Positions 9,109-11,610 are shown, numbered from the stretch's first letter. The stretch: 64,000 bases of DNA from Escherichia coli (GCF_003334785.1 NZ_QOWV01000007.1), one strand, 5' to 3'. Translations and numbers: made by a program. The notes: a model not told the origin generated them from the letters alone.

Positions 9109-9650
9109 GAAGGTTGTTGCCAGGCGGTTAAGTTCACTTCCAGATTATTCTTATCATCCGATAACCAGATCACGCCATCCTGAATCGTTGCCTGCAGCGT
9201 CATGGTACGATCGGCAAAGGCGCTTACTTTCGCCAGTTGTTCATCGTCCAGATACCAGACGGAAAGATTGGCAAACTGCACACATTTGCTCTGATTTTGC
9301 TGCCACCAGATTTGCGCCGCCCGACTATTATAGGTAAACAGCGCCACTTCTGCGGCCTGGGTGCAGGCTTTCTTAATCCGCCGCTCATCCGGCAGCCCCA
9401 GCTCAATCCACAAATCAATGCCCAGGTGATCGTTACGCAGCCACGCTTCCGGCTCATCATCGGCACACAAACCACGGGTAAATTGCAGACGTTCATCAGC
9501 ATATTTCAGCCACGCCAGCAAGCGCAGCATCATACGCTCCTGGGTTTCTGAAGGATGGCGCGCCAGCGTCAGAGAGGCATCGAGAAACTGGTTGCGGTCG
9601 AGATCGGCCACATTAACCGTCGCTTTATAAATTGTCGCTTTAAGCGCCAT
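9105..9650 (-). CDS. yaeQ: YaeQ family protein (function unknown)
   Basis: 181-aa ORF; its stop overlaps the arfB start by 4 bp. Confidence 0.9.
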
Positions 9651-9815
9651 AAGAAAACTCCTTTCGAATCAGGAGGCCATTGTAACGGAATACGTGCAGT
9701 TGCGGCGCTGATATTGCAGAAATGAGTGTGGTATAGTCACCTTGCGAAACAGAGTTTATCTTCGTAGGCTTAGACTTGCATCCACGGTTAAGTCAGAGTG
9801 CTGACAGGAGGGCAT

Positions 9816-10016
9816 GTGGAAAAATATTGTGAGTTAATACGCAAGCGGTACGCGGAAATCGCCAGCGGAGACTTAGGATACGTTCCGGACGCGCTGGGCT
9901 GCGTTTTGAAAGTGCTGAATGAAATGGCTGCCGACGACGCCCTTTCTGAGGCTGTCAGGGAAAAAGCAGCATACGCTGCGGCAAACTTACTGGTGAGCGA
10001 TTATGTCAATGAATGA
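9816..10016 (+). CDS. yaeP: Small protein YaeP (UPF0253)
   Basis: 66-aa product from a GTG start preceded by AGGAGG; ORF-track entry begins 6 codons upstream at an ATG. Confidence 0.8.
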
Positions 10017-10263
10017 TACGTATCAACCAATCAATTGTGATGATTACGATAATCTTGAGCTCGCCTGCCAGCATCATTTAATGCTGACACTTGAGCTGAA
10101 AGATGGCGAAAAATTGCAGGCAAAAGCCAGTGATTTAGTCTCCCGCAAAAATGTGGAGTACCTGGTCGTCGAGGCCGCTGGCGAAACCCGCGAGCTGCGT
10201 CTGGATAAAATTACCAGCTTTAGCCACCCGGAAATCGGTACGGTGGTGGTAAGCGAATCCTGA
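10009..10263 (+). CDS. rof: Rho-binding antiterminator Rof (YaeO)
   Basis: 84-aa ORF starting [17 protein letters not shown]; 8-bp overlap with yaeP. Confidence 0.9.
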
Positions 10264-10272
10264 TTGACTTTC

Positions 10273-10305
10273 GCCGGATGCGACGTTTGATGCGTCTTAT
10301 CCGGC
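10273..10305. repeat. REP-like palindrome, likely bidirectional terminator
   Basis: GCCGGATGCGACGTTTGATGCGTCTTATCCGGC between convergent rof and tilS. Confidence 0.7.
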
Positions 10306-10311
10306 TTTCAC

Positions 10312-11610
10312 TTAACTAAGCGTTTTCTGCCAGACAAAACTTACGCCATTCTCACCTTCAGCCACACCTTCTTGCGTCACAAATACCCCTGCCGCCGCAA
10401 TCAGCGTTTCGCCATAAAACAGCAGTGGCGTGGTGTCACGTAGCCACGGCGGCACGCCCAGCTCTTGCCAGATTTTCTTTAGCTTACGTCCGCCGTTACG
10501 CCCGACAATATGCAGCAATCCTGGCGCTTTGAAACGCACGCTGACCGCTTCGTCTGCACGCGGAGGGCGAATATCGCCTCCCGCATTAAGCTGTACACTT
10601 CCCAGCCCCGCCGGTAATTCCAGCGGTTGAAGCCACGTCTGCCACGGCACAATGTTTTCGCTTTGCCCGGTGACGGATTTAATCCACCACAGTTGCGACT
10701 GATAGCGTCGGATTTCAAACGCGCCCAAACGTAAACAGGGTGAGGCATCTTCCCGCGCCAGCGCCACTTCCTGCCAGATCCTCACCAACGCGTCGCGGGA
10801 AGGCATCGGTGCATTCTGCCCTGCCAGCCAGCGGCGGATAATCGCCGCGCGGCGGGCATCACTCATCGCCAGCATTGGCACAATCTGCAGCGTCCCCTGC
10901 GGCGATTGACAGTGTGCTAAATCATCTGCCAGCAGTTCATCCAGCAGGCTCTCTTGTTCAGCACAAAGTGCGGCGCTGCGGGCCGTTGCTTCGGCAAAAT
11001 GCGGCCAACGCTGCTGCAATAACGGCACTACGCGCAGGCGCAGAAAGTTACGATCGTATGAGTCGTCCTGATTACTTTCGTCTTCAATCCAGCGTAAATC
11101 ATACTGACGCGCCCACTGCACCAGTTCCCCCCGCGTGCGGGCGAGCAACGGGCGAATAAGCCGCGTTCCGGCAAACTCCGAGACTTCCGCCATAGCCGAA
11201 AGCCCGGCAGGGCCACTGCCGCGTTTTAGCGCCAGCAGAAAGGTTTCACATTGATCGTCGAGATGTTGCGCGGTGACCAGCACTTCACCGGGCAACAAGG
11301 TGCGGGCAAATGCCTGATAACGTGCCTGCCGCGCCTGGGCCTCAATGCCCAGTCCTTCTTGCGCAAGTTGTACGCGTTCGACCACCAGCGGCACCTGCCA
11401 CTGTTGGCAGACGTTTTCGCAATGCGTAACCCAGGCATCGGCATTGGCACTTAAACCGTGATGCACATGAATAGCGCGCAGAGCGACACCCGGATTTTCC
11501 GTCCGCCACTGCACCAACTGATGCAGCAGAACGGTGGAGTCAAGCCCGCCGCTAAAGGCCACCAGAATCTGGCGTGAGGTGAGAAGTTGTCTATTGAGCG
11601 TGAGTGTCAT
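10312..11610 (-). CDS. tilS: tRNA(Ile)-lysidine synthetase
   Basis: 432-aa ORF with PP-loop motif SGGLDS near the N-terminus. Confidence 0.95.

Follow-up and report, generated by a model that had tools for sequence, protein, structure and literature searches.

The window, a stretch of 64,000 nucleotides of Escherichia coli DNA, carries the gene yaeP on the plus strand at 9816–10016, with a GTG start codon, 66 codons and a TGA stop at 10014–10016. Translation from 9816 gives a protein of 66 residues (MEKYCELIR...LLVSDYVNE) that belongs to the YaeP family (PF06786/UPF0253). A Shine–Dalgarno (SD) sequence, AGGAGG, precedes the start at 9806–9811 and is separated from it by the four-nucleotide spacer GCAT (9812–9815), both on the plus strand. 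The gene lies directly upstream of rof, which it overlaps, and is divergent from yaeQ–arfB, an arrangement that is characteristic of the family in the Enterobacteriaceae and is described in the literature.

The yaeP reading frame extends upstream of 9816 to an in-frame TAA (9789–9791, plus strand), which is the upstream bound of a mechanically derived ORF of 72 codons. The first possible start of this ORF is a GTG at 9798–9800 (plus strand); sequence, conservation and the lack of an SD sequence indicate that it is not the functional start. A first-pass annotation of the window had proposed that yaeP starts at the GTG at 9816, and it contrasted this with a 72-residue ORF starting from an ATG at 9798. 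The frame is indeed open from 9798, but the codon there is GTG and not ATG. The only ATG near the yaeP start, which is absent from that account, is found at 9814–9816; it lies in another frame and shares its last base with the GTG (cAUGUGg, with the AUGUG motif at 9814–9818). It opens a seven-codon ORF (MWKNIVS) on the plus strand that spans 9814–9837 and ends with a TAA at 9835–9837.

Positions 9541–10341 of the window are the exact reverse complement of positions 213600–214400 of K-12 MG1655 (NC_000913.3), and a 701-bp region has matches of at least 95% identity in 5425 of 5426 complete E. coli genomes. The MG1655 reference places yaeP (b4406) at 213925..214125, which corresponds base for base to 9816..10016 and to the gene model of the first-pass annotation, and the RefSeq/PGAP coordinates are identical in two further E. 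coli genomes that were checked. The proposed model is therefore the annotation that already exists. Comparison with b4406 (NC_000913.3, RefSeq, PDB 5H1N) revealed the same sequence, the same GTG start, the same stop and the same 66 residues, with no difference. The start at 9816 is thus correct but already known from the reference annotation, RefSeq, a crystal structure and a 2022 paper on AUGUG sites. The 72-residue entry that had been put forward for correction is a mechanical longest open frame and was never an annotation. The case illustrates that the position of an SD sequence, read from the sequence alone, sufficed to choose the correct start, and that a listing of longest ORFs is not equivalent to an annotation.

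Evidence from the protein side leads to the same start. The structure PDB 5H1N comprises the 66-residue protein (MEKYCEL...VNE) and a tag, which agrees with the translation and with the reference annotation and confirms the product length that had been claimed. The equivalog model of the YaeP family, NF003436, gives a match of 138.7 bits (cutoff 99), and its positions 2–68 of 68 align to residues 6–72 of the 72-residue ORF, so that the extension falls outside the model. PF06786 is precomputed on all of the homologues. Distant homologues (40–64% identity, 64–69 residues) mostly begin at a methionine that aligns with the 9816 codon, and the window's protein has both the length of the family (approximately 64–69 residues) and its N-terminus, three residues before a Y-(xx)-C-E/D motif. 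DNA was examined for three homologues that lie outside the yaeQ–yaeP–rof synteny; each has ATG at the 9816-equivalent position, and in-frame stops are found 3, 12 and 15 nt upstream.

The SD sequence was described in the first-pass annotation as strong, as optimally spaced and as lying inside the longer ORF. The last point follows from the coordinates, as the AGGAGG starts at 9806 and the ORF opens at 9798. The duplex of AGGAGG with the 3′ tail of 16S rRNA was calculated at -10.8 kcal/mol, which is beyond the 1st percentile of the window background when a 9-nt tail is used (-8.0 kcal/mol) and about at the 1st percentile with a 13-nt tail (-11.0 kcal/mol). Upstream of 9798, the duplex is close to background: -2.4 kcal/mol against a mean of -2.06 for the 9-nt tail, and -4.6 kcal/mol against a mean of -3.68 for the 13-nt tail. 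A complement of the 16S tail followed by a spacer of 4 nt is within the range for canonical SD-led initiation (approximately 4–9 nt). With regard to spacing, Kohl et al. (2022; NAR 51:271, PMC9841429) include yaeP among the atGTG starts, with the SD sequence AGGAGG, a DtoStart of 12 and an abundance of 94.5 ppm. The optimum DtoStart in their reporter series was approximately 13–14, and short spacers were more harmful to GUG starts than to AUG starts (PMC9841429). The yaeP spacer is therefore near-optimal but 1–2 nt short, which makes "optimally spaced" slightly generous, whereas "strong" is right. A search for experimental start-site data gave no entry for yaeP in the supplementary files examined from TRAINSPOTTER, tetracycline profiling, Salmonella riboproteogenomics and Kohl et al.

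By motif counts, AGGAGG is found 8 times in the window against 16 expected (both strands), and AGGAGG-N4-GTG once against 0.24 expected, which alone is not rare. The decisive support for the SD sequence beyond chance is the presence of GGAGG at a constant distance from the start in all 79 of the other species compared. This comparison set consisted of the yaeP loci of 79 other Enterobacteriaceae species (80 with the window), anchored on the protein alignment; a locus search with a six-sequence alignment yielded Enterobacteriaceae only, and more distant DNA was reached by exact-protein look-ups. The GGAGG occupies positions -9 to -5 relative to the start in 79/79 species (80/80 with the window). 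At the position of the 9816 codon, 77 species have GTG and two have ATG (GTG 78 and ATG 2 when the window is included), and yaeP is 66 codons long in 82/82 loci.

SD sequence, spacing and start codon are thus conserved among orthologues that have no conserved in-frame alternative upstream. Across the 80 loci, the codon homologous to 9798 is GTG in 14, ATG in seven and TTG in four, and a non-start codon in the rest (GCG, ACG, ACT, GTA, ATA, ACA and others); in two loci it is a TAG stop. The nearest in-frame upstream stop is located at -27 in 45/80 loci, one species has a TAA at -3, and in 36/80 loci there is no in-frame ATG, GTG or TTG between the start and the preceding stop. The pattern of variation also changes at the start codon. 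Positions -18 to -16 are 46–67% conserved at all three codon positions, and positions -9 to -5 are 100% conserved whatever their codon position, including an A that would be the free third base of a glycine codon. Spacer positions -4 and -3 are 81% and 73% conserved, respectively, and -2 and -1 (AT) are 95–96% conserved. Three-base periodicity, reflecting third-position wobble, is found only downstream of 9816. As the A of GGAGG is invariant even though any GGN encodes glycine, and wobble begins only after 9816, the "TGGH" of longer database entries is the SD sequence read as protein. These patterns argue that any N-terminal extension of YaeP would not be under coding selection.

At its 3′ end, yaeP overlaps rof on the same strand. 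In MG1655, rof (b0189, 213678..213932; 84 residues) is annotated from the ATG that corresponds to 10009–10011 and extends over 10009–10263 (plus strand) in the window. This confirms the proposed overlap between the yaeP stop and the rof start, which is formed by ATGAATGA at 10009–10016 and amounts to 8 nt, as in the MG1655 annotation. A second rof start is the upstream ATG at 10003–10005 (plus strand), which is used by PGAP and NF008636 and would give an 86-residue Rof and a 14-nt overlap; NF008636 matches Rof residues 1–86. Both lengths are represented in the PDB (1SG5, 86 residues; 8W8D, 84 residues). The ATG at 10003 is present in 79/79 species, and the ATG at 10009 is replaced by ACG in two. 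In vitro profiling by INRI-seq gave 8–13 CPM at the annotated rof initiation site in 5/5 replicates and a minor peak of 7.9 CPM at the ATG at 10003 (PMC9825163). The 8-nt overlap, the two possible Rof starts (84 and 86 residues) and the lack of a canonical rof SD sequence have been described before (10.1101/2023.08.30.555460), and the literature treats yaeP–rof as one unit.

Practically all of the 82 loci retain the junction, ...TATGTCAATGAATGA, and with it the geometry of a coupled pair, in which the stop of the first gene (TGA, 10014–10016) overlaps the start of the second on the same strand. The last ten yaeP codons (9987–10016, plus strand) contain an embedded rof initiation region. They show zero synonymous changes across 79 species, and their third positions are 97–100% identical, compared with 40–90% at most other codons. 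There is no GGAGG-type SD sequence for rof (-2.8 kcal/mol with the 9-nt tail), but an invariant SD-like GGUGA at 9992–9996, 6 nt before the ATG at 10003 and 12 nt before the ATG at 10009, can form a duplex of -7.6 kcal/mol with the UCACC of the 13-nt 16S tail and possibly helps rof initiation.

Ribosomes that stop at the UGA at 10014–10016 would sit over both rof AUGs and could re-initiate at 10009, at 10003 or at both, so rof is most likely expressed by translational coupling. The pair resembles other translationally coupled overlapping genes (ATGA and longer overlaps) in its 8-nt (or 14-nt) overlap, in the lack of a canonical SD sequence reported for the downstream gene, and in the invariance of the junction and the preceding 30 nt across the family. 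It differs from them in that we infer coupling from this arrangement, that both ATGs, which are separated by 6 nt, may be usable starts, and that the GGUGA could allow some independent ribosome binding. The low in vitro rof peaks were obtained on a template that lacks the yaeP start, so coupling may not be obligatory.

Upstream of yaeP, a consensus scan predicted a sigma-70 promoter for yaeP–rof at 9708–9737 (plus strand), with a -35 element CTGATA (9708–9713), an 18-nt spacer and an extended -10 element TGgTATAGT (9729–9737; -10 hexamer at 9732–9737). Both hexamers are at least 90% conserved among 78 distinct intergenic sequences. The implied transcription start, at approximately 9744, is upstream of both candidate start codons, so the promoter does not discriminate between them; a look for an experimentally mapped start returned none. 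Directly after the predicted -10 element, a nearly invariant block of approximately 35 nt, CACCTTGCGAAACAGAGTTTATCTTCGTAGGCTTA (9738–9772, plus strand), extends from the region of the predicted transcription start into the predicted 5′ UTR, of which it makes up the first ~29 nt. Its consensus is CACCTTGC(G/T)AAACAGAGTTTATCTTCGTAGGCTTA; TCTTCGTAGGCTTA is found exactly in 65/89 loci, and the block, conserved throughout the Enterobacteriaceae, is still recognizable in a distant relative with 64% identity (L083, positions 735–757). The block is a possible regulatory site of the yaeP–rof operon. Two Kluyvera loci (L059 and L073) have a leader deletion of ~27 nt, in which the segment homologous to ~9773–9796 of the window is gone and the conserved block, CTGACAGGAGG and the GTG start are spared.

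Several structural candidates in the 5′ UTR were considered and rejected. A single-sequence fold had a z-score of -1.5, and the RNAalifold consensus (-3.1 kcal/mol) showed no real covariation. A covariation of CCAC/GUGG with UCAC/GUGA that was seen by eye gave no helix on testing. A hairpin GUCAG-N4-CUGAC at 9792–9805, which would place the GTG at 9798 in its loop, is pairable in 91% of cells, but shuffled sequences perform no worse and covariation is virtually absent. An Rfam scan of 9500–10400 returned nothing except a sub-threshold naRNA4 hit downstream of rof. This hit (10199–10306, both strands) reaches 27.9 bits, below the gathering score of 59.5. It overlaps both the rof 3′ end and the spacer between rof and tilS, and is REP-like, which is consistent with the REP elements reported to bracket the locus.

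From the sequence anatomy, annotation, conservation and homologue N-termini, all of which were directly observed, we infer how ribosomes would behave at this locus. A mechanism is proposed where the AGGAGG at 9806–9811 binds the 3′ tail of 16S rRNA and the 4-nt spacer brings the GUG at 9816 into the P site of the 30S subunit. The in-frame GUG at 9798, which has no SD sequence, would be unused, and the AUG at 9814, with only 2 nt between it and the SD sequence, would be sterically too close to compete. We consider it very probable that YaeP is made as a 66-residue protein by SD-led initiation at 9816, with 9798 and 9814 unused and rof most likely coupled. As the presumed translation entry point for rof, which encodes a Rho inhibitor, yaeP makes the locus one of some current interest, and useful leads may lie in the conserved leader block and in the rof initiation region with its invariant sequence.

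Should ribosomes reach rof by way of the stop/start overlap, Rof levels would be set by any factor that controls initiation at 9816. A more elaborate reading is that the yaeP initiation region could be a throttled, regulated gate for Rof, which is toxic. It would combine a very strong SD sequence with a GUG start, a spacer of 4 nt that is too short and a decoy AUG, all of which are conserved across the Enterobacteriaceae, and the leader block at 9738–9772 could bind a regulator or an sRNA. We regard this extension as unlikely.

A different possibility is that initiation is divided, with most ribosomes starting at the GUG at 9816 and a minority at an in-frame CUG at -15 (9801–9803, plus strand) or at the GUG at 9798, which would yield a minor YaeP proteoform of 71–72 residues. 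This reading derives from INRI-seq, which uses retapamulin to profile initiation in vitro on a pool of synthetic transcripts (PMC9825163). There, the CTG at -15 was listed as a putative non-annotated initiation site of yaeP with 71.8 CPM in 5/5 replicates and an in vivo Ribo-RET value of 0 (PMC9825163, Table S3). In the pipeline, a peak can be assigned to any of six codons within 15 ± 3 nt, and the GTG at 9798 therefore fits the signal as well. The template contained 30 nt of native leader behind GGG, which is an artificial setting that lacks the native 5′ context. As evidence, the peak does not strongly favour upstream initiation and does not strongly exclude it either.

Comparative data provide arguments on both sides. 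CTG is found at -15 in 71/80 loci and [C/T/G]TG in 76/80, the frame from -15 to the start is open in all but one locus, and by our reading of the sequence UAAG at 9789–9792 could serve as a 4-nt SD sequence at the same aligned spacing. Against this, the CTGACA at -15 to -10 is 87–97% conserved without any codon-position pattern, which points to a constraint on RNA or DNA rather than on coding, and the one interrupted locus has its TAA at -3. CUG is, moreover, a very poor initiator. Together with the zero value in vivo, these observations make divided initiation very unlikely.

The CTGACA also belongs to a promoter-like sequence, CTGACA-N18-TATTGT (9801–9830, plus strand), that straddles the yaeP start and in which both hexamers are essentially invariant. 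The third positions of Tyr4 (TAT) and Cys5 (TGT), which make up the second hexamer, are invariant in 79/79 species, although other pairs of yaeP codons are invariant too. The sequence could reflect coincidence, an internal promoter or another constraint at the nucleotide level, and is a weak lead.

The overlapping AUG raises the question of start-codon ambiguity, in which a substantial share of ribosomes would initiate at 9814, translate MWKNIVS to the stop at 9835–9837 and thereby throttle yaeP–rof. Kohl et al. surveyed E. coli for genes whose annotated start lies within ATGTG or GTGTG and showed that ambiguity is possible at such sites (PMC9841429). The ATGTG is present in 71/79 species, and the AT at -2 and -1 is well conserved, unlike -4 and -3. 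The short peptide is not conserved as such; the ORF is a bare ATG-TGA in 11 species, and in the others the yaeP codons simply dictate its sequence. yaeP is included in Table 2 of that study with GUG as the annotated start and the AUG 2 nt nearer to the SD sequence, and it is tabulated as not ambiguous (PMC9841429). The ambiguous class has a DtoStart of 12/14, in contrast to 10/12 at yaeP, which is accordingly predicted to be unambiguous, and reporters with the yaeP geometry (2-nt spacer, DtoStart 10/12) were active from GUG exclusively (PMC9841429). The AUG at 9814 is predicted to be unused because its spacer to the SD sequence is only 2 nt, and ambiguous initiation at yaeP is highly improbable.

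That the 72-residue ORF is itself the gene, starting at the GTG at 9798 with AGGAGG as no more than the Gly-Gly codons of an LTGGH extension, is scarcely credible and appears effectively refuted by the comparative data: the frame is open, the INRI-seq peak lies within 3 nt of the 9798 codon and database entries of 71–85 residues elsewhere carry an ...LTGGHV... extension, but the best upstream duplex (-2.4 to -4.6 kcal/mol) is near the background mean and ends 2 nt before 9798, only ~25/80 loci have a start codon at -18 and two have TAG there, the extension varies without a coding pattern around an invariant A of GGA and is impossible in distant homologues, and the reference annotation, the NCBIfam model and the crystal structure all have 66 residues.

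The longer entries form a group of their own. Public databases contain YaeP entries of 71, 72, 80 and 85 residues from other genera that run through the SD sequence (…LTGGHV…); in our set they include proteins P0003, P0006–P0008, P0012, P0015 and others, and loci L057, L075, L078 and L080. In the 71-residue NCBI entries, for example from Raoultella, the -18 codon is ATA, which leaves the CTG at -15 as the necessary start. All of these entries (71–85 residues) are probably over-extended annotations and resemble the N-termini that are produced by choosing the longest ORF. E. coli differs in this respect, as the curated and PGAP annotations that were checked are already correct.

On the opposite strand, the leader of the divergent gene yaeQ contains a hairpin, CUCCUgauucgaaAGGAG (9658–9675, minus strand), that sequesters the yaeQ SD sequence. 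The full stem is specific to Escherichia, and other genera keep approximately three of its pairs.
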